Below, piece after piece: positions 35,130-62,876 of a stretch of 64,000 nt of DNA. This DNA comes from a virus: IMG/VR virus record IMGVR_UViG_3300044846_005371, positions 32,001 through 96,000 of that record, one strand, 5' to 3'. Below the pieces are notes generated by a model that made no database searches, was not told the DNA's origin, and saw only the letters and a list, made by a program, of their open reading frames with translations. Position 1 is the first letter of the stretch, and each line of letters starts with the position of its first letter. The translations under genes and the position numbers were made by a program.

Positions 35130-35602
35130 TGATACTAAATTTTAAAGAGTTTTGTCTGCTTGAAGCTAAGTCTAAATCAAATAACCCAGCTCAATATAAA
35201 GCTCCGGAAGGAAGTGCTCGTGACAAGAAATTAGATAAAGCTAAGGAGCTTCTCAAGAGAGGAAATAAGGAAGAAGCTTACGCCCTTAGAGATGAAATGG
35301 AAGCAAGAGTTAGAAAGAATCCTAATTGGAAAAACACTCCTAGAAAAGATTCAAAGGTGAACGAGGCTTCTAAAAAAAGTGGCAGAAACTTAAGTAAGGA
35401 AACGTTAGCTAAGATCCGAGCAGTTGCTAAGAAGAAAGGATACTCCTTTGCTGATCTTAAACGTGAATATGTTAAAGGATTGGGAGCATACTACTCATCT
35501 GGTTCCAGACCAGGCATGACTGCACATCAGTGGGCAATGGCTAGAGTAAATGCAGCAAGTCCAAGTAAATCATGGGCAAACGTAAAAAAAGTAGGTAAAT
35601 GA
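35129..35602 (+). CDS. Lys-rich hypothetical protein, putative internal head protein
   Basis: MILNFKEFCLLE; second module after KVNE with KGLGAYYSSGSRPG..AHQWAMARVN. Confidence 0.7.
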   Translation: MILNFKEFCLLEAKSKSNNPAQYKAPEGSARDKKLDKAKELLKRGNKEEAYALRDEMEARVRKNPNWKNTPRKDSKVNEASKKSGRNLSKETLAKIRAVAKKKGYSFADLKREYVKGLGAYYSSGSRPGMTAHQWAMARVNAASPSKSWANVKKVGK

Positions 35603-35964
35603 GCGAAATTTACGCGTATTCAAATGGAAAAATAGTGATCAAGAAAAGTTCTATTCATGGAATAGGAGTGTTTGCAAAAGAAGACATTTCAAATGGAGAA
35701 TTAATAGAAGTATGCACTTCATTAGATTTAGATAGATGCAATAGAGCTACTCTAACTGAATATGCATTTGAAAGGCCATCAGATGGTCCAGTCAAAAGAT
35801 TAGTCATATTATTAGGATATGGAAGTTTGTATAATCATTCAGAAGATAACAATGTAGATTTTACAATAAATTCAGATTCCAAACGATTCACATTCTTTGC
35901 AACTAAAGACATATCTGCTGGTTCTGAATTAACGATAAATTACCAAAAAAATAAAAATACATGA
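35599..35964 (+). CDS. Minimal SET-domain protein-lysine methyltransferase
   Basis: KKSSIHGIGVFAKEDI..GELI, GYGSLYNHS and FATKDI.AG.ELTINY: all canonical SET motifs. Confidence 0.9.
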   Translation: MSEIYAYSNGKIVIKKSSIHGIGVFAKEDISNGELIEVCTSLDLDRCNRATLTEYAFERPSDGPVKRLVILLGYGSLYNHSEDNNVDFTINSDSKRFTFFATKDISAGSELTINYQKNKNT

Positions 35965-39545: not shown

Positions 39546-39557
39546 ATTTGTTCAATT

Positions 39558-39571
39558 TTTTTATTATTTAT
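39558..39571 (-). promoter_or_regulatory. Putative late promoter ATAAATAATAAAAA
   Basis: Exact 14-mer upstream of the sheath ATG (39545). Confidence 0.75.
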
Positions 39572-39655
39572 TCGAAATTACTAACAGGAAAGCTAAAAAA
39601 TCTAAAAATAGAGATCCTTGAGTATTTATTCAGTATAAGACCTGAAACGATTATT

Positions 39656-40144
39656 GTGAAAATACTCAAGACTCGAAATGTTAGAACTCCTGAAAGAGGA
39701 ACTAGCTATGCTGCAGGAATAGATTTCTTTGTTCCATATGAAGAAGATTTTTATATTGTTAATTCAACTACTGGGGAAGTTAAAAAAGGCGGAAAAGAGC
39801 TTATTTTACTTCCTGGAGAATCTGCTCTCATTCCATCCGGTATAAAAGCATGCCTTCCTGAAGGATACGCTCTAGTTGCTTTTAATAAATCAGGCGTTTG
39901 TACTAAAAGGTCAATAACTGTTGGTGCAGAAGTAGTTGATGAGGACTATATGGGTGAAATTCACTTGCATGTTATAAATTCAGGCATGCATTCTACTCAA
40001 ATTCATCCTGGAGATAAATTAATCCAGTTCATGTTAATCAAACAGAACTACTTAGATGTAGAAACTGTTGAAACTGAGTTTGAATTATGGAGAGATAAGA
40101 AATCTGATCGTGGCGAGGGAGGTTTCGGCTCAACTGGAAACTAA
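39656..40144 (+). CDS. dut: Trimeric dUTPase
   Basis: AAGIDF, IPSGI, NKSG, VVDEDYMGEI, QF and RGEGGFGSTG motifs. GTG start at 39656 preferred over the track start. Confidence 0.9.
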   Translation: MKILKTRNVRTPERGTSYAAGIDFFVPYEEDFYIVNSTTGEVKKGGKELILLPGESALIPSGIKACLPEGYALVAFNKSGVCTKRSITVGAEVVDEDYMGEIHLHVINSGMHSTQIHPGDKLIQFMLIKQNYLDVETVETEFELWRDKKSDRGEGGFGSTGN

Positions 40145-40169: not shown

Positions 40170-40421
40170 ATGACAAAAATTATTGAAAACGATTTTACTG
40201 GAGGTCAAGGTGCAATGCCTCAGCAACCCCAGATCAATCCGGCAGATTTGCCATATATTGAATGCGAATCATGTGGACACAAAGTCTTTGAAGAAAAGAT
40301 GATGATAAAAAAAGTATCTAAGTTATTGACAGGCAATCCAACTGACTCAATTATGCCAGTTCCAGTTATTGCTTGCTCAAAATGCGGACATGTTAACGAA
40401 CTCTTTATGCCAAAAGTATGA
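40170..40421 (+). CDS. Small zinc-ribbon protein
   Basis: CESCGH ... CSKCGH pair. Confidence 0.7.
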   Translation: MTKIIENDFTGGQGAMPQQPQINPADLPYIECESCGHKVFEEKMMIKKVSKLLTGNPTDSIMPVPVIACSKCGHVNELFMPKV

Positions 40422-41842
40422 TAGTTGGTTCAGAAGTATTAAATGATAGCAATGAGCTACTAATCTCATATTATGGAAGTGATGGCAAGATATCGTACAT
40501 CCGAAAGAGACTTCACGATCATGAAATGTTTAACTGGGTAGAATCGTCAGTTCCCTCAGCTATTAAAGCATGGAATGGTAAATCGTTAAAGAAGGCAAAC
40601 TCTAATGGTCGATATATGTCTCAATTTAGAATTCAGGAATTGATCAAAGAGAAATTAACCCCTGAAGAAATTGAAGCTATCTACTCATTTGATAACTTGC
40701 CAAAGAAACACTACTTAGATATCGAGATCAAGCTACTTGATGAATCTTTTCCAGATCCTGAGAGAGCTAGAATGCCAGTAGGTTTAGTATCATTCTGTAA
40801 TGAGGATGATGTCACATACGTACTTTCAATGATGAATAATGAAGAGCAACCGAATGGTTTATCTGAAGAGGACATCAAGCGAATGGAAAACGATGTGAAA
40901 GAATACTTTAAAGGAATTGTTCCATTAAAACCTGAGGATGCTAAGTTATTCAATAAGGATTTCAAGATAAAGTATGTTTACTTTAACACTGAAGAAGAAC
41001 TTTTAGAATTTTACTTTCATAAGATTCTTCCAAAGATGTCCTTCATTACTGGTTGGAACGTAACCGAATTCGACTGGAAGTACTTAATGAATCGTTGCTC
41101 AAATATGAAAGTTGATTCCATGCAAAACATGGTGTCCAGAGCAACTTTCTCAAAAGTAAAGATTCCAACTCACATGGGAATACTTGACTATATGCAAGTA
41201 TTTGAGAAACTAAAGCCATATAAAGTTGTTGAAAACTACAAGCTTGATTACATCGCAAGTATAGTTTTAAATGCAACTAAATTGAAGCATGATTATGCAA
41301 CCATGTTTGAGTTTCAAAAGGATCTTTATCTCTTTACAATGTATAACGTAATTGACGTTATCCTCGTTAAATTGATTGAAGAAAAGCTATCAATTCTTGA
41401 TGTTGCATTCTCAATTGCAAATGTTGCGCAAGTTGAAGTAAACAAAGTATTTAGTCCAGTTTACATTGCTGAACTATTGATGTGTCGTGAATTCTTGAAT
41501 AAGAATCTTAGGATGCCGAAACCTGAATGGGGACAATCTAATGATGTTGATGCAACATATGAAGGCGCATACGTAAAGAAACCAAACCCAGGTCACTATA
41601 GTTACGTAGCATGTTATGACTTCTCATCAATGTATCCTAACATTCAAATACAATTCAATATTTCTCCAGATACCTATCTTGGGAAAGCAGATGAAGTTAA
41701 GAGAAAGGGTGGAGAGATAACTACTCGAAACAATACTTTATTTAGAAGTGATACTGACTCAGCAGCTCGAACCATCTTAACAAAACTATACAACGAACGT
41801 ATATCAACTCAAGGAGAAATTAAAAAGTTAAAAAATAAGTAA
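40418..41842 (+). CDS. Family B DNA polymerase, N-terminal part only (exonuclease plus motif A); split gp43-like
   Basis: ExoI LDIE, ExoII WNVTEFD, ExoIII YNVID, motif A YDFSSMYPNI. Stops after the first fingers helix; no KxxxNSxYG or YGDTDS. Confidence 0.9.
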   Translation: MIVGSEVLNDSNELLISYYGSDGKISYIRKRLHDHEMFNWVESSVPSAIKAWNGKSLKKANSNGRYMSQFRIQELIKEKLTPEEIEAIYSFDNLPKKHYLDIEIKLLDESFPDPERARMPVGLVSFCNEDDVTYVLSMMNNEEQPNGLSEEDIKRMENDVKEYFKGIVPLKPEDAKLFNKDFKIKYVYFNTEEELLEFYFHKILPKMSFITGWNVTEFDWKYLMNRCSNMKVDSMQNMVSRATFSKVKIPTHMGILDYMQVFEKLKPYKVVENYKLDYIASIVLNATKLKHDYATMFEFQKDLYLFTMYNVIDVILVKLIEEKLSILDVAFSIANVAQVEVNKVFSPVYIAELLMCREFLNKNLRMPKPEWGQSNDVDATYEGAYVKKPNPGHYSYVACYDFSSMYPNIQIQFNISPDTYLGKADEVKRKGGEITTRNNTLFRSDTDSAARTILTKLYNERISTQGEIKKLKNK

Positions 41843-41843
41843 T

Positions 41844-42176
41844 ATGAATTCAGAATCATTAATCAATTGGATCGAAGGTTATCTAGATGCTTGTAAAAAC
41901 AAGCCAACTCATAATCAAATTAAGGAAATCAGAAAGAAGATCGAAGAGTACCGAAAACCTTCAACTAGTTTTTGGGGTCCTGGAACTACTACAGTACCTA
42001 GCCCAATCTATGGATCTGGAACCACTCTGCTAACCGATAGCCCAAGATTTAGCTATAATGAGATTCCTGTTACTAAAAGTAACGGTGAAGAAGTTCTTCA
42101 AAATAATAATTCTGAGATAGATGAGCTTATTGAAAAAGCTAAGCGAGCTACTACCATGGAAGATTTGGAGCAATAA
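41844..42176 (+). CDS. Hypothetical protein
   Basis: 110 aa, starts 2 nt after the polymerase stop; no motif. Confidence 0.65.
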   Translation: MNSESLINWIEGYLDACKNKPTHNQIKEIRKKIEEYRKPSTSFWGPGTTTVPSPIYGSGTTLLTDSPRFSYNEIPVTKSNGEEVLQNNNSEIDELIEKAKRATTMEDLEQ

Positions 42177-42189
42177 AAAATCAAAGAAA

Positions 42190-42852
42190 ATGTACGACGA
42201 AAACAAACACATCTCCTTAATGGAGAATTTCAACAGACAGAAGTTTCAATGGATAAAAACCAAGGATCGTTCTAGACTAGCAAAGGTCGTAACATGCATT
42301 GATATTGTTCCAAGTGGTCGTTCCTTTGTTGCAAAATTTGACGACGGTTCAAGTACCGATGTTTCTAGGATAAGTTCTGATCTTATGATGATTACTGCTG
42401 ACATGCCAGCTCTTTCTAAAGCTGAGGTAGAATCTATTAATGGTCCAGTCATAACTTCTACTCCTAAAACTGGAGAAGGGCCAATCAAACTTCCGCCTGA
42501 GCTTCAAAAGGAAGCCGAAGCTATGCGAGCAGAAGCTGCTCTTGCAAATAAACAAGTAGTTTCTACTCAAATAGTGTCGGAAAATCCTACATTTGCTGGA
42601 ACAACAGTTTCACATATTGCTAAAGTTACTCCTTCTACTATTTTCTCAGCCTTTAACTCAGAAGAAACTCAAATTTCATTGGGAGTTAATATAAAGCTGC
42701 CAGAGAAGAAGCTTTTGAAGATGATGTACATGAATGCTGAAAGCAAAGATAAGTTCGTAGAAGATCTTTCTGAGTTTATTCTAAGTCAAATAAATAAACA
42801 AGTAGTATCATCTTCTGTACTTTCTATGCTTATGTCATCTAAGGGAAAATGA
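42190..42852 (+). CDS. Hypothetical protein
   Basis: Start reassigned to ATG 42190 (MYDENKH) to avoid overlapping the upstream gene; no motif. Confidence 0.65.
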   Translation: MYDENKHISLMENFNRQKFQWIKTKDRSRLAKVVTCIDIVPSGRSFVAKFDDGSSTDVSRISSDLMMITADMPALSKAEVESINGPVITSTPKTGEGPIKLPPELQKEAEAMRAEAALANKQVVSTQIVSENPTFAGTTVSHIAKVTPSTIFSAFNSEETQISLGVNIKLPEKKLLKMMYMNAESKDKFVEDLSEFILSQINKQVVSSSVLSMLMSSKGK

Positions 42853-42874
42853 TTTACTTAAAATTAAGTAGACA

Positions 42875-43450
42875 ATGGGACAAGATCTAAGTAACTTTGC
42901 ATTTAATCCTCAGGAAAAGTATTCTGATGGAAAATATTCATTCTATGAAATTTCTGATGGAACAAATTCTCATCGACGTATAAATTGCGATGTTGATGGG
43001 ATCTGCATAATGCCATTTGATTTAAACGATCATGGACAGATACATCATATTTACTTGCAAAAGTATCTAGATTATTTCAATGGAACTCAGGATTATTGTT
43101 GTGTGCATCATGATATGGATCCCGAGTATGACAACTCTCACTATGATGCTCTTGTAAGAATTTGTGAAAAGGAACTTGCGCTTGACGATATTGACGTAAA
43201 TGATATTTTCTATCTAGGAAAAGTTGCTCATACTGTTCCATTTAGTAAAACATATCGTTGTTATGGCGTAAACGTTTCAAATTATTCAGCAGATTCAGTA
43301 GAGGGGTTTAAGCCAGCTATTCCAGTATCGGAAAGAGATTCTAAAAATCATTCATTGGAAAAAGTTAGATTCACTCGACTTCTAAATGGAAGTATCGCCG
43401 ATTCACTAGCTCTTTCTTGTGGCTGCTTGCTTCTTTCTTACATAAAGTAA
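42875..43450 (+). CDS. Hypothetical protein, possible degenerate Nudix fold
   Basis: GICIMPF strand and ALVRICEKELAL helix in Nudix-like spacing, but the REUxEExGU box is broken. Confidence 0.45.
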   Translation: MGQDLSNFAFNPQEKYSDGKYSFYEISDGTNSHRRINCDVDGICIMPFDLNDHGQIHHIYLQKYLDYFNGTQDYCCVHHDMDPEYDNSHYDALVRICEKELALDDIDVNDIFYLGKVAHTVPFSKTYRCYGVNVSNYSADSVEGFKPAIPVSERDSKNHSLEKVRFTRLLNGSIADSLALSCGCLLLSYIK

Positions 43451-47052: not shown

Positions 47053-47297
47053 TGAGATTTGTAAAATTTACAATAAATGGTATTGCCAGAATGATAAACT
47101 TGTATCAGGTGAGCGATATTCAGTATGTTTCCGGTACTTCAATTGTTCTCATATTCTATAACACTTTCGATTATAGCGAAGTTGTGACCATTGAATCTGC
47201 ATCAGATGACGAAGCTAGATTACTATTTGAAAAATTGGAAAAAGCATGTCGTCCAATCGACTTTGATGAACTTGATATTACTGAAATTAGAGATTAA
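47052..47297 (+). CDS. Hypothetical protein
   Basis: 81 aa, TAATG-coupled on both sides. Confidence 0.65.
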   Translation: MRFVKFTINGIARMINLYQVSDIQYVSGTSIVLIFYNTFDYSEVVTIESASDDEARLLFEKLEKACRPIDFDELDITEIRD

Positions 47298-48415
47298 TGA
47301 TAAATTTAACAGGAATTAGAAAAATATTTCTGTTGGGTGATCTACACTTAGGCGTTAGAAATAACTCAACAGAATGGTTTGAAATCCAAAAGTCTTTTCT
47401 TTTGGATTTTTTTATCAGAAAAATAGAGGAAGATGGATTTGATCCTGATCAAGACGTCTTATTCCAAGCTGGCGACTGGAATCACGTTAGAGAATCCACA
47501 AATGTTAGAATTTGGAACTCATCTTTAGATATTGCTGAGGCCCTATCGAATAAGTTTAAGAGAGGTGTTTATATCATCTTAGGCAATCATGATGTATATT
47601 ATAAAGATCGAACAGATACACATTCTCTAAAGGGATATGATAGAATGTTTCCTAACTTTAAGATATTTGAAAAACCTGAGGTCCTTCAAGTAAATAATAA
47701 GCATAAATTCTTAATGCTTCCTTGGATAGAAAGCGTTGACGAGATTTCGCAAGTTGTTCTTAATCATAGTGGAAAAGTAGATTACATACTTTGTCATGCA
47801 GACATTAAGGGATTTCGACTAAATAAATGGGCAACCTTAGAACACGGATTAGAGATAAATGATTTGCAAGCATTCAAACGAATCTATTCTGGACACATCC
47901 ATATTCGTCAGGAGAACTTAAATTCATTATATGTTGGTACACCATACCATATGGATAGAGGTGATCGTGGGAACTCTAAGGGCTTCTACATACTTGATTT
48001 TTCTACAGGAGATCTTGTGGAAAGATTCGTTGAGAATACTGAGTCGCCACAATATGTAAAATACGATATGTTTGAGTTATTAAACATGAACTTCGATGAA
48101 ATTTCAACTCTATTTAAGAATAACTTCGTTGACGTTATGATTGAAGCCGAATTTGCATCAAAATTCCCAATAACTCAATTTACTGAGATGGTAAAACCAT
48201 CTGGTTATCGACATATTGAGTTCTTCACATATAATAAGAATCAAAAGACTCGAAGCGAACAAGAATCAGAATCAAGTTATGAGTACAATATCTTCGATAT
48301 TCTTGAAAATCAGCTAAAGTCTAGAAGTTATTCAGAATCGTTAAGCACCGAAGTTAGATCAAAGTTCAAGGAGATCTATGATTCTCTTAGGAACAATAAA
48401 AGTCACGCACAATGA
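47297..48415 (+). CDS. Recombination nuclease, gp47 / Mre11 / SbcD-like
   Basis: Metallophosphoesterase motifs GDLHLG, AGDW, LGNHD, CHAD, SGHIH. Confidence 0.92.
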   Translation: MINLTGIRKIFLLGDLHLGVRNNSTEWFEIQKSFLLDFFIRKIEEDGFDPDQDVLFQAGDWNHVRESTNVRIWNSSLDIAEALSNKFKRGVYIILGNHDVYYKDRTDTHSLKGYDRMFPNFKIFEKPEVLQVNNKHKFLMLPWIESVDEISQVVLNHSGKVDYILCHADIKGFRLNKWATLEHGLEINDLQAFKRIYSGHIHIRQENLNSLYVGTPYHMDRGDRGNSKGFYILDFSTGDLVERFVENTESPQYVKYDMFELLNMNFDEISTLFKNNFVDVMIEAEFASKFPITQFTEMVKPSGYRHIEFFTYNKNQKTRSEQESESSYEYNIFDILENQLKSRSYSESLSTEVRSKFKEIYDSLRNNKSHAQ

Positions 48416-50103
48416 AGCTATTAGAATTTTCATACAAGAATATACTTTCATACGGTAACAAGCTACAAAAATTTGAATTTACTGATGAACCTCAACTTAT
48501 ATTAGTCGAAGGAGAAAATGGTGCAGGTAAATCATCAATTAAAGAAGCATTAACTGTTTCGATTTACGGACGATCTGCTATCCGAAAGATGAAAGATATT
48601 CCAAATTGGATTAATCGAAATGCGTATACTCAAGTTAAGTTTATTTCAAATTCTGGAGAAACTATTGAGATCGATAGAGGAATCGATCCAAACTTTAGTA
48701 ACATCCAAGTAAATGGATCAGAATTTAATCTGCCAGATAAGAGAAAAGTTGATGAGTTCGTAGAAGATGATTTAGCTAGAATACCATTTACTGTATTTTG
48801 TAATACTATTAGCCTATCATTCGATGATTTTAAGTCATTTGTTAACTTAACTCAAGCAGATAAGAGAAAGATTGTCGATCGAATCTTTGGAATCGATATC
48901 CTTAGTGATATGCGAGTAGTTGTTAAAGATGATCTAAAATCAAGAAAGAAGGAACTTGAATTAATTGACACAAAGCTTTCTCAAAATAAGGAAGTTTTAT
49001 CAAGATCAATGATTCAACTAGATACTCTAAAGAAAACTTTACTTGAAAAAAAGGACAATGAAGTTTCTAGACTAACTACTTCAATTTCCGATAAGGAATC
49101 CGAATTAGTTGAAATTCGTGAAAAGTATCAAGCTTTTAAAAAGGTAATTGATGATGTTAATGCAAAGATAAACGATATTAAGGAAAATTCTAGGAGTTAT
49201 TCATCCTCTATCCGAGATCTTTCATCAAAATTAGATCTCTATAATAAGAATAGATGCCCGCACTGCTTAAATGACCTAACAACTGATACTTCTAAAAAGA
49301 CCAAGGAAATTATTGAGTCCAAGAAAATAGAGCTAGAGCAAAAGTTACCTGCTCTAAATGCTTCTCTATCTGAATTGAACGCTGAATTAAATAAGCAAGT
49401 TGATGAGCAATCAGAGGCTAGGTCAGATTTCTATCAAGTTCAAGCAGATCTCAACGCTTTAAAAAATGAGCTTGATAAATTACAAAAACAACTTGAAAAT
49501 TCTGAAACAGGTTCAATTCAATCAATTATCGATTCGTTAGAAAGTGATATAGCTAGAGAAGAATCATTACTTTCTGAAAAGAAAGGAGCTTCTCAACTAT
49601 TTGAAATTTTAGACGATTTATTATCTGATTCAGGAATAAAGAAATCATTAATTGACAAAATTATTCCAGCCCTAAATGATAGAATCTTGGAAATTTCAAA
49701 ACAGTTAGAATTCAAATTTACATTTGAGTTCGATAGCGACTTCAATCCTATCATTTCTTATTTAGGAATGGATATTTCTCCTGAAAGTTTATCAAGTGGT
49801 CAACGTAAGAAGATGAACCTAATTGTTCTTCTTGCTTTCATTGAGCTAATTAAGATGAAACACAATCAAATGAATATCATGTTTCTTGATGAGATCTTTA
49901 GTTCTCTTGATAAGAACAATGTATATCGTGCAATTGAGATTCTAAAGCAATATTCTGAGAAATATAATATGACTATCTTTGTAGTATCTCACGAAGCTCT
50001 TCCTGAAGAATTCTTCGATACTCGTATCTCAGTTACACAGTCCGACCATTTCTCAGATATGAAGATCATCTCAAATAAAAAGCAAGTAAAACCTAAGAAA
50101 TAA
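48412..50103 (+). CDS. Recombination ATPase, gp46 / Rad50 / SbcC-like
   Basis: Walker A GENGAGKS, zinc hook CPHC, signature LSSGQ, Walker B FLDE, H-loop VVSH. Confidence 0.93.
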   Translation: MKLLEFSYKNILSYGNKLQKFEFTDEPQLILVEGENGAGKSSIKEALTVSIYGRSAIRKMKDIPNWINRNAYTQVKFISNSGETIEIDRGIDPNFSNIQVNGSEFNLPDKRKVDEFVEDDLARIPFTVFCNTISLSFDDFKSFVNLTQADKRKIVDRIFGIDILSDMRVVVKDDLKSRKKELELIDTKLSQNKEVLSRSMIQLDTLKKTLLEKKDNEVSRLTTSISDKESELVEIREKYQAFKKVIDDVNAKINDIKENSRSYSSSIRDLSSKLDLYNKNRCPHCLNDLTTDTSKKTKEIIESKKIELEQKLPALNASLSELNAELNKQVDEQSEARSDFYQVQADLNALKNELDKLQKQLENSETGSIQSIIDSLESDIAREESLLSEKKGASQLFEILDDLLSDSGIKKSLIDKIIPALNDRILEISKQLEFKFTFEFDSDFNPIISYLGMDISPESLSSGQRKKMNLIVLLAFIELIKMKHNQMNIMFLDEIFSSLDKNNVYRAIEILKQYSEKYNMTIFVVSHEALPEEFFDTRISVTQSDHFSDMKIISNKKQVKPKK

Positions 50104-50121
50104 AATAGTGTATAAAATATT

Positions 50122-50997
50122 ATGATTATCCATAAGGCTAAAACATTTGCTGAAGCTTATAAAGAAAGTATCGAAGCAGTTTATAAAAACCCTCAATTCG
50201 TAACTAGACCTCGAGATCTAAATATCTATGAGAATACTGATGTTGCATTAGTTATTGAGGATCCTCTTTCGTGTTTATATGATAATGCAGCACGATCTTC
50301 TCAGTATAAATACATCTCTGCTGAGTTGTTATGGTATTTCATGGGAAGAAATGATGTAGCTTTCATTGAGAAATTTGCAAAATTCTGGTCCTCAATTCAA
50401 AACGAAGACGGCACAGTAAATTCATCGTACGGAAACCTTCTCTTCACTAAGAAAAATAGATATTCCCTATCTCAATACTTTTGGGCATACCAGTCACTGG
50501 TGAGAGATAAGGATTCTAGACAAGCTGTGATGCATTTTAATTTACCGGAACACCAATATGTTGGAAACAAGGATTTTGTATGCACAATGTATGGGATATT
50601 TCAAATCAGAGATAATAAGTTGAATTTAACTATATCTATGAGAAGTAATGATGCAATTTGGGGAACTCCAACCGACGTTGCTTTTTTTGCAACTCTTATG
50701 AGTCAAATGCAATATCATTTAGTATCTAGTGGAGTCTATCCAGATCTTGAACTTGGAACTTACACACATATAGCAAATTCATATCATATTTACGATAGAC
50801 ACTTTAAATTAGTTGATCAAATGTTAGAGAATGAGTTTATACCAGTCTCAATACCTGCAGTTGATTCCAACTTAATTTCACAAAATGGAGAGCCTACTTC
50901 AAGTTTACGAATATTGTTCGATCATTATTCAGAAGGAATTTCTCCAGTAAAATCAAATATTTACGCATGGATATCAAAGCATCTAGCCAACAAATAA
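50122..50997 (+). CDS. Thymidylate-synthase-fold enzyme, predicted dCMP hydroxymethylase/methylase (gp42-like)
   Basis: SRQAV, DFVCT (catalytic Cys), MRSNDAIWGTPTD with Asp at the E. coli TS Asn177 position, HIY..H. The fold call is firm; the substrate is inferred. Confidence 0.8.
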   Translation: MIIHKAKTFAEAYKESIEAVYKNPQFVTRPRDLNIYENTDVALVIEDPLSCLYDNAARSSQYKYISAELLWYFMGRNDVAFIEKFAKFWSSIQNEDGTVNSSYGNLLFTKKNRYSLSQYFWAYQSLVRDKDSRQAVMHFNLPEHQYVGNKDFVCTMYGIFQIRDNKLNLTISMRSNDAIWGTPTDVAFFATLMSQMQYHLVSSGVYPDLELGTYTHIANSYHIYDRHFKLVDQMLENEFIPVSIPAVDSNLISQNGEPTSSLRILFDHYSEGISPVKSNIYAWISKHLANK

Positions 50998-51197
50998 GAA
51001 GCAAAGTATTTTCAAAAATTGTATCAAGAATTATCGGATTCTTCATATCTGCTTTAATATGTAAGTGGTTATATGACGCTTTCTTACTTGATGTATTTAA
51101 AACAAGTATAACATACGTTGATTGGTTACTAATAAAACTAATATTAAATCTATTAAGCCCCACATTTTTCAATGTTTCATTCAACTCTGATAAGTAA
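50967..51197 (+). CDS. Small membrane protein, hypothetical
   Basis: Two hydrophobic stretches; overlaps both neighbours; start uncertain. Confidence 0.45.
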   Translation: MDIKASSQQIRSKVFSKIVSRIIGFFISALICKWLYDAFLLDVFKTSITYVDWLLIKLILNLLSPTFFNVSFNSDK

Positions 51198-51606
51198 AGA
51201 ACTAAAGTATCATTTAACATACTTAAAGATGGCTAGTGAATGGTCAACTTTATCATGTTGTGGTAGAAAGAAAGTAGGCGCCTTGATTGTCAAAGACGGT
51301 ACTATTATTTCAGATGGATTTAACGGAACGCCTAAAGGCTTTCCGAATGATTGTGAAGATGCAAATGGCGACACTCACTGGTATGTTTTGCACGCCGAAG
51401 CGAATGCATTACTTAAAGTGGCTAGATCTACTCAAAGCACTAATGGAGCAACTCTGTACGTCACAACTTCTCCGTGTAAAGAATGCAGCAAATTAATAAT
51501 TCAAGCAGGCATATCTATGGTTGTGTATAAGGAAGACTATAAGGATTTGACTGGCTTGAAAATTTTGCAAGAGGCTGGGATAAAAATTACAAAATTAGAA
51601 ATATGA
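51172..51606 (+). CDS. dCMP deaminase (ComEB/cd family)
   Basis: VGALIV, GFNG.P, HAEANA, PCKEC zinc motifs. Confidence 0.93.
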   Translation: MFHSTLISKELKYHLTYLKMASEWSTLSCCGRKKVGALIVKDGTIISDGFNGTPKGFPNDCEDANGDTHWYVLHAEANALLKVARSTQSTNGATLYVTTSPCKECSKLIIQAGISMVVYKEDYKDLTGLKILQEAGIKITKLEI

Positions 51607-52004
51607 TTGAGCCGCGCCAAGTAAATGTAATCTTCGTAAAAGAGTATAGGTATTATATTCATGCTTTTGATAAAAAAAGCAAAGAAGATTATGTTTTAAA
51701 CGTTAGCAAAATCATTAAAGAGAAATTCAACACTAAGTTCATAATACCGAATCCAGTTCAATCTTTCCTATTGAATTATGAGATTAAGAAATTACTAGAT
51801 AAAGCTATTAATATCAAAAATCAAAAGTATTCAAATATTGTGTATCTTAATTCGAACTTAACGTATTCTTCTATCATAAATACTGTTAGTTTTATGGAAG
51901 CTGAGTATTCAGACATCGAATTCAAATTTAAGTACGTTGAGCATAAGGACTTCGATGATATGATACACACTATTGATTTTTTGGAAATACTCCAATTAAA
52001 ATAA
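51603..52004 (+). CDS. Hypothetical protein
   Basis: 133 aa, ATGA-coupled to the deaminase, followed by a terminator. Confidence 0.65.
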   Translation: MIEPRQVNVIFVKEYRYYIHAFDKKSKEDYVLNVSKIIKEKFNTKFIIPNPVQSFLLNYEIKKLLDKAINIKNQKYSNIVYLNSNLTYSSIINTVSFMEAEYSDIEFKFKYVEHKDFDDMIHTIDFLEILQLK

Positions 52005-52028
52005 AAAACCCACCATTTGGTGGGTTTT
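52003..52028. terminator. Bidirectional Rho-independent terminator
   Basis: AAAAAA-CCCACC-ATTT-GGTGGG-TTTT between converging genes. Confidence 0.88.
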
Positions 52029-55166: not shown

Positions 55167-55367
55167 ATGCAAATTTTACTCTGGATTCATATTGATTCCC
55201 TTGAAGACTTAAATCATGTGATTACTTACGGGTTCTTGAAAAGAGAGAATGGAACAATTTTCATATATCATTCTAGCCAAAGCTCTGAACACGTGTGTGT
55301 CAGTATCCCATATTCTACATACTTAGACATTATCAATAACCCTAATTGTCAATCAATCGATGCCTGA
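55167..55367 (+). CDS. Hypothetical protein
   Basis: 66 aa, first gene of a rightward operon, preceded by AAGTATATT. Confidence 0.5.
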   Translation: MQILLWIHIDSLEDLNHVITYGFLKRENGTIFIYHSSQSSEHVCVSIPYSTYLDIINNPNCQSIDA

Positions 55368-56145
55368 ACTTGCCGAAGTTAAAATTACATCAGAACAGAT
55401 CAATTCACTATGTGAAGATCTAATTTTCAAAAAAATTCTAAAGTCGCCTGAAACCAAAGTAAAGACTGATCTCTACTGTGAATTTGACCAGTTTAGAATA
55501 AAGGCAGTTAGTCGAGGCAAAGAATTGCAACTCACCCTATCTGAGGTTGGGACTCCAAATTCAAAAAAGATGATAATTACTTTGGGAATGAGCGGTTATT
55601 TTGTAATGTCAAATGACTGGCCAAAACACGCTCATCTTAAATTTGAATCAGAAAGTGGAAGTCTCTACTTTGTTGATGTTCGTAGATTTGGAAAATGGAA
55701 ATGGTCAACCTGGTCCAGTAATAGAGGTCCATGCGTACTAACTGAGTTCAATTCTTTCTCCGAAAACGTACTATCTAATATTAGTAAAAAAGAATTTGAG
55801 AAGCCCATCTATGAAGTTATGATGAATCAAAGATACTTTAATGGAATTGGCAACTATCTTAGGGCTGAGATCTTAAATCGATTAGATATAAATCCGTTTC
55901 AGTCCGCTCGTGAATATATTCTAGCTTCTACTAATTTCTTAGAGATGTGTCATCGAATAGTCTATGAATCATACATTTTAGGAGGAGGTCAACTTAAAGA
56001 TTGGCAAAATCCATTCAACGTTCCAGTAAACGGCTTTTCTGAATGGCTCACATGCTATTCAATCGGGGATAAGCTACTTGACAGAAATGGAAGAACTTTT
56101 TGGTTCAATCCAAAGTGGAAACCGCAAACTTTATTAATTTCTTGA
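55360..56145 (+). CDS. Fpg/Nei-family DNA glycosylase/AP lyase, NEIL1-like with zincless finger
   Basis: MPELAEV (catalytic Pro-Glu), RGK, LGMSG, DVRRFG, H2TH NQRYFNGIGNYLRAEIL, DRNGRTFWF; no C4 zinc finger. Confidence 0.9.
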   Translation: MPELAEVKITSEQINSLCEDLIFKKILKSPETKVKTDLYCEFDQFRIKAVSRGKELQLTLSEVGTPNSKKMIITLGMSGYFVMSNDWPKHAHLKFESESGSLYFVDVRRFGKWKWSTWSSNRGPCVLTEFNSFSENVLSNISKKEFEKPIYEVMMNQRYFNGIGNYLRAEILNRLDINPFQSAREYILASTNFLEMCHRIVYESYILGGGQLKDWQNPFNVPVNGFSEWLTCYSIGDKLLDRNGRTFWFNPKWKPQTLLIS

Positions 56146-56158
56146 GTATAATACTAAT

Positions 56159-56614
56159 ATGAAGCACTCAATTTACTTAGATGACATCCGAACTCCAGTC
56201 GATAAGAGATGGACAGTTGTTAGAAACTATGACGAGTTTGTTGAAAAGGTCAAGGAACTTGGCTTGGAAAATATTTCATCAATATCTCTAGATCATGATC
56301 TTGGAGAAACTGCGATGATTGAATACTACACAAACGTTTCTCCAAATTACCAGTTGGACTACTCTCATATTGAGGAAAAAACAGGATATGATTGTGCTAA
56401 ATGGCTAGTTAATCATTATTATGAGCTCTTTCCAGAAAAAAGAGAACGTCCTCGACAAGCTATTGTTTTTCCACAAGTCGTTGTTCACTCTGCAAATCCA
56501 ATCGGCTCTGCAAACATGATGGGATATATCAACAATTTCCTAATGAACGAACACCAGCCTCAAACTTGCGCAAGAGTGAGAATAGAACACACAATTGAAA
56601 CTCAAGTAGATTAA
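56159..56614 (+). CDS. Cyclic-phosphate-processing receiver-domain protein
   Basis: IYLDDIR, ISLDHDLG, TGYDCAKWL, VHSANPIG. Confidence 0.75.
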   Translation: MKHSIYLDDIRTPVDKRWTVVRNYDEFVEKVKELGLENISSISLDHDLGETAMIEYYTNVSPNYQLDYSHIEEKTGYDCAKWLVNHYYELFPEKRERPRQAIVFPQVVVHSANPIGSANMMGYINNFLMNEHQPQTCARVRIEHTIETQVD

Positions 56615-62321: not shown

Positions 62322-62876
62322 ATGCATATTTTAGACAATTTTATTTCTTGGAAAGATGCCAAGAAGCTCTTTGAGGAGAAACAAACATATGAATATGGCT
62401 GTGCTATGTTATATTTTGAAATGCCTCAAATGAAGGAACTTCACGAATCAATAGCTCCAGATGATGTATACACACAAGAAGGAGATCGTTCGTTTGGATT
62501 AGAAACAAATCCTCACGTAACTCTATTATATGGCTTACATCACGATGTCGATCATGATGCAGTTATGAACACTTGTCAATCTCGACAATATCCTCAACTT
62601 ACTCTAAAGAATGCATCATGCTTCAATAATTCAGATTATGATGTTTTGAAATTCGATGTCGATTCACCAGAGTTACACCAAGTAAATCAGGAATTGACTA
62701 AATTTCCTCATACTACTAATTTTCCTGACTATCATCCACATTCTACTATTGCTTACCTTAATAAAGGCGCAGGCCAAAAGTATATTGATGCGCTAAGAGG
62801 AAAAGAATTCACAGTTACTCCAAATAAGATAGTCTATTCATTAGCGTCTGGAGATAAGATTGAAAATCCTTTATAA
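62322..62876 (+). CDS. 2H phosphoesterase, T4 gp57B/Acb1-like
   Basis: Two HxT motifs: PHVTLLY and DYHPHSTIAY, the second matching the T4 gp57B DYTPHITLSY pattern. Confidence 0.8.
   Translation: MHILDNFISWKDAKKLFEEKQTYEYGCAMLYFEMPQMKELHESIAPDDVYTQEGDRSFGLETNPHVTLLYGLHHDVDHDAVMNTCQSRQYPQLTLKNASCFNNSDYDVLKFDVDSPELHQVNQELTKFPHTTNFPDYHPHSTIAYLNKGAGQKYIDALRGKEFTVTPNKIVYSLASGDKIENPL

Follow-up and report, generated by a model that had tools for sequence, protein, structure and literature searches.

What does a phage gene of the thymidylate synthase (TS) family make when the residue that selects its substrate is Asp? The question is raised by the open reading frame (ORF) at 50122-50997 of a 64,000-nt stretch of viral DNA, which we call the window and which covers positions 32,001-96,000 of record IMGVR_UViG_3300044846_005371 (G000 below). 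A first-pass annotation had read the ORF as a TS homologue acting on deoxycytidine monophosphate (dCMP), and proposed that the phage makes 5-methyl- or 5-hydroxymethyldeoxycytidine (5mdC or 5hmdC). We think that the ORF probably encodes a deoxycytidylate 5-hydroxymethyltransferase of the T4 gp42 functional class, and put the probability of this, judged from sequence and a structural model, at about 0.72. From the active-site residues of this enzyme, the phage very probably builds 5-hydroxymethylcytosine (5hmC) into its own DNA.

Translation of the window gives the gene as one uninterrupted frame of 291 aa:

50122..50997, + strand: dCMP hydroxymethylase homologue of the T4 gp42 / MilA type, with the TS fold, a PF00303 match and the marker residues.

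The residues on which the earlier proposal was built are where it had placed them. The Cys codon at 50581-50583 specifies Cys154 in a DFVCT motif that starts at residue 151, and the Asp codon at 50674-50676 specifies Asp185, the last residue of MRSNDAIWGTPTD. The spacing of 11 residues from Arg to Asp is the same in the alignment for T4 gp42 (MRSNDVVFGFRND) and RB69 Td (QRSVDVFLGLPFN), and for T4 gp42 it is also given by BLASTP. The match to the Pfam family PF00303 (Thymidylat_synt) is one of 69.5 bits, where the cut-off is 24.3 (E 3.4e-19), and is therefore not due to chance. The NCBIfam equivalogs for TS are another matter, as the protein falls far under every cut-off, the best score being 57.5 bits against 327.

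The TS-fold protein encoded by the ORF is nearest to the cytosine hydroxymethylases MilA and T4 gp42, and these stand above any true TS. In a sequence search of PDB the best matches are MilA (7e-21) and the T4 dCMP hydroxymethylase (5e-20), with true thymidylate synthases at 8e-12 or worse, and a profile of 40 sequences gives the same order (4e-29, 2e-26 and 7e-16 respectively). An AlphaFold2 model built on an alignment of 40 relatives has a predicted local distance difference (pLDDT) of 93.7 and a predicted template modelling score (pTM) of 0.93. In Foldseek it has MilA as top match, with a template modelling (TM) score of 0.81 over about 300 columns, followed by the T4 hydroxymethylase and thymidylate synthases at about 0.65, and all of the top matches listed are TS-family chains. 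The alignment with MilA takes in the C-terminal extension, residues ~240-291, which is MilA-like.

The products of this family can to a large extent be told apart by a few residues. Replacement of Asn177 (E. coli TS numbering) by Asp turns the substrate from deoxyuridine monophosphate (dUMP) to dCMP (PMC8670742; PMC13326640). The residue three before the catalytic Cys (C-3 below) is Leu in TS and Asp or Glu in the hydroxymethylases (PMC6400193; PMC13326640). In T4 this is Asp145, which activates the substrate water and prevents hydride transfer, and the D145N mutant gives no 5-hydroxymethyl-dCMP (5hm-dCMP; PMC6400193). Asn in place of Asp169 is the mark of the recently found flavin-dependent 5-hydroxy-dCMP (5ho-dCMP) synthases (PMC13326640), and deoxyribose is chosen by Ser167 and Arg126', where MilA has Ala and Lys (PMC5175136). 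We aligned the family with reference genes of known product, namely T4 gp42, RB69 Td, RB69 gp48, the Xp12 homologue, gp29 of SP8 and of SPO1, and the phiW-14 gene. The residues are as follows, with positions 169 and 177 numbered as in E. coli TS:

TS homologue of the window: predicted product 5hm-dCMP; C-3 Asp151; position 169 Asp177; position 177 Asp185.
T4 gp42: product 5hm-dCMP; C-3 Asp; position 169 Asp; position 177 Asp.
Xp12 homologue: product 5-methyl-dCMP (5m-dCMP); C-3 Asn; position 169 Asp; position 177 Asp.
RB69 gp48: product 5ho-dCMP; C-3 Glu; position 169 Asn (RSQN); position 177 Asp.
SPO1/SP8: product 5-hydroxymethyl-dUMP; C-3 Asp; position 169 Asp; position 177 Asn.
RB69 Td: product deoxythymidine monophosphate (dTMP); C-3 falls in a gap of the alignment, in a canonical PPCH loop; position 169 Asp; position 177 Asn.

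At every position tested the TS homologue has, in this alignment, the pattern of T4 gp42. Conservation was counted over 121 relatives of 58-99% identity. D185, which aligns with T4 D179 at the E. coli Asn177 position, is present in 121 of 121, as are the C-3 residue D151 of the DFVC motif and D177 at position 169, where the Asn of the 5-hydroxy-dCMP synthases was not found. Also invariant are the general-acid Glu and the Ser-x-Tyr motif (E68, S101 and Y103, for T4 Glu60, Ser94 and Tyr96), the deoxyribose-type pair S175 and R133, the His and Tyr for the 3'-OH (H222 and Y224), and the catalytic C154 and R174, the latter answering with R133 to the phosphate-binding Arg of the TS fold. The three residues Asn177, Leu143 and His147 that mark a canonical ThyA are D185, D151 and T155 in this protein.

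With regard to the choice left between 5mdC and 5hmdC, we prefer 5hmdC because D151 is the marker of hydroxymethylation, being Asn in the Xp12 enzyme, and because D145N abolishes hydroxymethylation in T4. This half of the proposal is retained, and the 5mdC half is disfavoured by the Asn of the Xp12 methylase.

Genes of the relatives bear on the same choice. The subfamily comprises 1059 proteins at E 1e-5 or better (90% clusters), mostly unnamed or labelled as TS, and has 288 IMG/VR loci, of which 81 were fetched for counts of synteny. The suggestion that a separate thyA or thyX be looked for was fruitful in three relatives. In addition to the TS homologue, G001 (81% complete) and G004 have a ThyA of canonical type that scores about 290 bits and has the motifs VLPPCH and GLPFN, and the 462-kb uncultured LR756500.1 has a ThyX besides its TS orthologue. 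The TS homologue is for this reason not the TS of the clade. Within the 120 kb of G000 that were searched there is no second TS, and no dihydrofolate reductase (DHFR) was found in five clade records, as expected if tetrahydrofolate (THF) is not oxidised. The G001 ThyA (L100, G001:175500-178000) is a 381-aa open frame with insertions of ~40 and ~30 aa relative to RB69 Td. The match to ThyX in LR756500.1 (276524-278152, - strand) is in two pieces ~1 kb apart within one open frame of 577 aa, which suggests an intein or large insertion.

The orthologue in LR756500.1 is 53% identical to the TS homologue, and 1.4 kb downstream of it is a homologue of the T4 beta-glucosyltransferase (PF09198, 82-85 bits against a cut-off of 27). 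This is the T4 arrangement of gene 42 and beta-gt, and thus gives independent support for a 5hmC product. The cluster (L082:7632-14531) has a gene for a MobA-like nucleotidyltransferase before the orthologue and, on the other side, the beta-glucosyltransferase gene and a Sir2-family gene; there is no adjoining deaminase gene. It is probably a 5hmC glycosylation cluster.

The G000 record itself is 120,168 bp with a GC content of 35.5%, and comes from a distant T4-like myovirus, uncultured and of the jumbo-phage type. Elsewhere in it are genes for the large and small subunits of ribonucleotide reductase, a gp23-type capsid protein and a prohead protease. The capsid protein has its nearest relatives in LR756500.1 and the Lak megaphages, and cyanophages come next. 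Megablast of 12 kb around the TS homologue gave no match in phage records. In the window the TS homologue is the third gene from the end of a + strand block in the order dUTPase, PolB (N-terminal part), UvsX, gp41-like helicase, gp47, gp46, TS homologue, dCMP deaminase and 133-aa ORF. The features of the block that we refer to are:

39548..40144, + strand: trimeric deoxyuridine triphosphatase (dUTPase) with all five motifs and an N-terminal extension of ~40 aa (PF00692, phrog_135, PDB alignment).
47297..50103, + strand: genes for the recombination nuclease, gp47 (Mre11-like) and gp46 (Rad50-like) (Metallophos and SbcC/SMC matches; synteny in 40-54 relatives).
51172..51606, + strand: dCMP deaminase of 144 aa, short and non-allosteric, whose zinc motifs are HAE and PCxxC (PF00383 at 2.6e-23; phrog_174 at 2.4e-51).
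51603..52004, + strand: conserved ORF of 133 aa that ends the operon; 77 of 81 related loci have it behind the deaminase gene.
52005..52028, unstranded: palindromic GC-rich hairpin, flanked on either side by T runs (terminator scan).

The TS homologue starts 18 nt after the end of gp46. Over the 81 loci the arrangement from gp46 through the TS homologue and the dCMP deaminase to the 133-aa ORF is nearly fixed, and of the 77 loci with room to show it, 76 have the deaminase gene no more than 1.5 kb downstream. The closest PDB entry to the deaminase is the dCMP deaminase of cyanophage S-TIM5 (4p9c, 5e-37). The 133-aa ORF has no Pfam or PHROG family match, and the ESM Atlas gave no usable lead for it, the matches all being <0.9 and the model poor. 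The hairpin is likely to act as a terminator in both directions, for the replication and nucleotide block on the + strand and for the late genes that converge on it from the - strand. A 76-aa ORF at 50967-51197 (+) overlaps the 3' end of the TS homologue and fills the 174-nt gap to the deaminase gene. It is probably not a gene, as none of the 81 related loci has a counterpart.

Several other genes of the window may be recorded here. The PolB ORF in 40418-43450 (+) has 474 aa, with the exonuclease domain and the start of the polymerase domain, and is followed by ORFs at 42121-42852 and 42875-43450 that have no family match and are kept in 20-24 relatives; the polymerase may be split or have very divergent C-terminal parts. 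About 5 kb downstream of the TS homologue, at 55360-56145 (+), is a gene for a DNA glycosylase of the Fpg/Nei family, present in 39 related loci. Nei-type enzymes excise oxidised or deaminated pyrimidines, and this one might be relevant to 5hmC DNA. There are also genes for a minimal SET-domain protein of 121 aa (35599-35964, +), a protein with a cREC_REC cyclic-phosphate-processing receiver domain (56159-56614, +), and a 2H phosphoesterase with an Acb1-like match (62322-62876, +).

If the TS homologue is a dCMP hydroxymethylase, Cys154 would attack C6 of dCMP, with Asp185 reading the N3/N4 edge of the cytosine, and the one-carbon unit of 5,10-methylene-THF would move to C5. The exocyclic methylene would then be hydrated by water held at Asp151, with Ser101 and Tyr103, instead of undergoing hydride transfer, and the products would be 5hm-dCMP and THF. 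A phage nucleotide kinase would lift 5hm-dCMP to the diphosphate, host nucleoside diphosphate kinase would supply the triphosphate, and the phage PolB would put 5hmC into progeny DNA, where it would be a shield against restriction. The adjoining deaminase is most likely like T4 Cd, and would provide the dUMP from which a TS of the phage or the host makes dTMP.

The best candidate that we can suggest for the kinase step is a P-loop protein of 204 aa encoded at G000:113503-114117, ~17.5 kb past the end of the window and present in 8 of 9 clade records. Its JGI name is thymidylate kinase (TMPK), and a model of it (pLDDT 85.6) matches thymidylate kinases; its substrate would be 5hm-dCMP. It bears no resemblance to T4 gp1, the T4 enzyme for this step having been one of our queries, and tblastn with it in the phage collection gave no match. 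The gene overlaps one for a phosphatase of the HAD family (G000:113503-114680), and the two are a possible nucleotide-pool pair.

It had been said of the window that no glycosyltransferase or nucleotide kinase gene is visible in it, and this is borne out by a scan of ~36 window ORFs. A six-frame search with PF00534 located glycosyltransferase family 1 (GT1) genes only at G000:17376 and G000:20034, both outside the window. The region G000:12201-22259 has two collagen-repeat fibre genes followed by genes for a 642-aa GT1 protein, a 255-aa ORF without family match, and an 898-aa GT1 and GT9 (heptosyltransferase-like) protein. The GT1/GT9 genes (G000:16869-22259) are unlikely to encode DNA glycosyltransferases, given their position behind the collagen-like fibre genes and their absence from close relatives in which the TS homologue is retained. 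The T4-type beta- and alpha-glucosyltransferase families (PF09198 and PF11440) are absent from G000-G003, and the LR756500.1 beta-glucosyltransferase protein as query found nothing in the ten clade records G000-G009, PF09198 being seen in LR756500.1 only, beside the TS orthologue. Carbamoyltransferase was likewise without a significant match in the clade records that were searched. The search for transferases acting on modified DNA, which had been recommended, thus recognised none in G000. The accompanying idea that any hypermodification is novel or encoded elsewhere draws only on transferases not found, in a record that is 47% complete.

A T4-type pathway would also include a dCTPase, and here the clade is divided. 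The dUTPase gene of the window is just upstream of PolB, which is the position of the gp56-type dCTPase/dUTPase gene in G002. There the ORF upstream of PolB (L102:1578-2045, - strand, 155 aa) was first indicated by a weak match to PF08761, and is a T4 gp56 homologue with 28% identity (E 2e-22). Homologues of T4 gp56, an enzyme of all-alpha type, are present in G001, G002, G006 and G009, and no trimeric dUTPase (PF00692) was found in G001, G002 and G006, the three of these included in that search. G000, G003, G004 and G005 have the trimeric dUTPase without a gp56 homologue. No record searched for both types has both, and in G000, G003 and G005 the trimeric dUTPase gene precedes the TS homologue by ~10-11 kb, as does gp56 in G002. 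There is no similarity between T4 gp56 and the window dUTPase. The distribution of the two types has the look of a non-orthologous gene replacement, with one locus common to both. Apart from the weak match in G002, nothing significant was found with PF08761, MazG or PRA-PH in those clade records that were searched.

Some of these observations weigh against the hydroxymethylase assignment or the pathway built on it. The C-3 rule is correlative, and as the Ser-x-Tyr motif is also in the Xp12 methylase and does not discriminate, it is the C-3 Asp alone that separates hydroxymethylation from methylation. In a maximum-likelihood tree with seven functional references the family groups only weakly with T4 gp42, but long reference branches dominate that tree and we do not rely on it. 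No homologue of T4 gp1 was matched in nine clade records, and the kinase candidate is assigned by fold alone, at a TM-score of ~0.6. G000, by CheckV a 47% complete record, gave no gp56-type dCTPase and no MazG or PRA-PH pyrophosphatase, and the enzyme at its gp56 locus looks like a plain dUTPase. With no recognised dCTPase, dCTP may stay in the pool and substitution of cytosine in G000 could thus be partial. One could suppose either that an enzyme of the trimeric dUTPase fold has gained dCTPase activity, a specificity that would be undescribed in that fold, or that there is a 5hmC pathway without exclusion of dCTP, with the DNA partly substituted or differently finished. In the latter case there may be a base-decorating enzyme that we do not recognise, for example the product of the 133-aa ORF at 51603-52004. 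We advance this pair of options tentatively, and consider it rather unlikely that either applies.

The alternatives for the enzyme itself differ in product. An Xp12-type dCMP methyltransferase would make 5-methyl-dCMP, and the deaminase would turn part of the pool to thymidine nucleotides, with no separate TS needed. Asp at position 177 is equally compatible with this, an Asp-type homologue with a deaminase is the exact layout of the 5-methylcytosine (5mC) phages that have 5mC-selective deaminases (bioRxiv 10.1101/2024.12.05.627091), and G000 has no second TS in its 120 kb. However all 121 relatives have Asp at C-3, where Xp12 has Asn, the T4 enzyme loses hydroxymethylation by D145N, and the pairwise score is 75 bits to T4 gp42 against 37 bits to the Xp12 enzyme. 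The relatives have their own ThyA or ThyX, no DHFR was found in the five records, and the beta-glucosyltransferase encoded beside the LR756500.1 orthologue requires a hydroxyl acceptor. We regard methylation as unlikely on this evidence. Slightly less likely to our mind is that the two enzymes act in series, dCMP being hydroxymethylated and the 5hm-dC nucleotide then deaminated to 5hm-dU, alone or together with 5hmC. The near-constant adjacency of the two genes would fit, and some phage deaminases of the dCMP family do act on 5hmdC nucleotides in vivo (bioRxiv 10.1101/2024.12.05.627091). However the deaminase is nearest to an ordinary cyanophage dCMP deaminase, T4 likewise has cd plus gene 42, the ThyA or ThyX of those relatives that have one would use dUMP from the deaminase, and the LR756500.1 orthologue lacks an adjoining deaminase. 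No 5hmU-processing enzyme was among the recorded Pfam and PHROG matches, no search having been aimed at them.

Other C5 chemistry on dCMP, be it flavin-dependent 5-hydroxylation of the RB69 gp48 type or an undescribed reaction, is very unlikely. Unexpected chemistry has lately come to light in this family, and RB69 gp48 also has Asp at position 177 and an acidic C-3 residue, but its diagnostic D169N change is absent here. The Asp retained at that position, D177 of the TS homologue and invariant in the relatives, argues against a 5-hydroxy-dCMP synthase, and the score to RB69 gp48 is only 31 bits. An ordinary TS, converting dUMP from the adjoining dCMP deaminase to dTMP, is what the source annotations name, and deaminase and TS would be a logical pair. 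We find it highly improbable, with Asn177, Leu143 and His147 all replaced, all NCBIfam TS equivalog scores far under their cut-offs (57 against 327, for example), and canonical ThyA coexisting in G001 and G004. No more probable is a hydroxymethylated cytosine nucleotide for use outside DNA, as made by MilA for a nucleoside antibiotic. MilA is the top match by fold and sequence and the C-terminal extension is common to both, but Ser175 and Arg133 are of the deoxyribose type where MilA has Ala and Lys, the gene is within a phage replication and recombination operon, and no MilB-like gene was noted. With Asp at position 177 and MilA and T4 gp42 as the closest proteins, a cytosine-type member of the TS family that modifies dCMP at C5 at the nucleotide level, as the first-pass annotation had it, remains the best reading, and hydroxymethylation is our choice within it.

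We suggest that the subfamily no longer be annotated as TS, as more than 1000 environmental proteins now bear that name or none, which is a systematic mis-annotation. The assignment predicts DNA of the 5hmC type in a widespread clade of uncultured T4-like phages of ~250 kb, and such DNA bears on restriction digests, library preparation, and nanopore or bisulfite-type analyses, and on the host defences evaded or triggered, for example type IV restriction. The family may also be of use in enzyme mining for epigenetic sequencing tools. The finding is useful but not surprising, since the chemistry is textbook, the anti-restriction strategy well known and the gene-pair signature already published. 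Mildly new are the MilA-like C-terminal extension of the TS homologue, the presence upstream of PolB of a gp56-type gene in some members and a trimeric dUTPase gene in others, and the lack of a recognised 5hmC-decorating enzyme in the ~250-kb clade. The gp56/dUTPase alternation, with a beta-glucosyltransferase only in the 462-kb relative, provides a natural series for study of the accessory genes that a 5hmC pathway needs.

With regard to known systems, the MetaGPA signature of cytosine-modified phage contigs is an Asp177 TS homologue within 3 kb of a dCMP-family deaminase (PMC8670742; bioRxiv 10.1101/2024.12.05.627091), and G000 has the same gene pair with Asp at this position. A deaminase beside such a homologue marks cytosine-modified contigs, at 70% vs 6%, and some of these deaminases act on 5mC or 5hmC nucleotides (bioRxiv 10.1101/2024.12.05.627091). 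In that work 5 of 7 thymidylate synthases tested made 5mdCMP and the deaminases were 5mC-selective, whereas in G000 the C-3 Asp points to hydroxymethylation, and the MetaGPA partners PRA-PH and carbamoyltransferase are absent here. The Xp12 dCMP methyltransferase and the 5-hydroxy-dCMP synthases RB69 gp48 and DLP3 gp80 are also Asp177 TS homologues that act on dCMP before replication, but Xp12 has Asn at C-3 and RB69 gp48 has Asn at position 169, where our protein has Asp at both.

In the case of MilA, the CMP 5-hydroxymethylase of Streptomyces rimofaciens (PDB 5JNH, 5B6D), Asp is present at the 143 and 177 positions as in the TS homologue. However MilA has Ala176 and Lys133', which favour ribose, and belongs to an antibiotic pathway, whereas the TS homologue has Ser175 and Arg133, which favour deoxyribose, and is in a phage replication operon. 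In the case of T4 gp42 (EC 2.1.2.8; PDB 1B49, 1B5E, 6A9A) the differences are that the TS homologue is only 28% identical and is 45 aa longer through the MilA-like extension, and that in G000 gp56, gp1 and the alpha- and beta-glucosyltransferases were not found and the kinase candidate has the TMPK fold. The two nevertheless share the TS fold, the Glu, Ser-x-Tyr, Arg', Asp-x-x-Cys-Thr and Arg-Ser-Asn-Asp residues, the specificity Asp and the His/Tyr for the 3'-OH, and the setting of the TS homologue is T4-like, a replication module that also has gp46/47, UvsX and gp41 and includes a dCMP deaminase gene.

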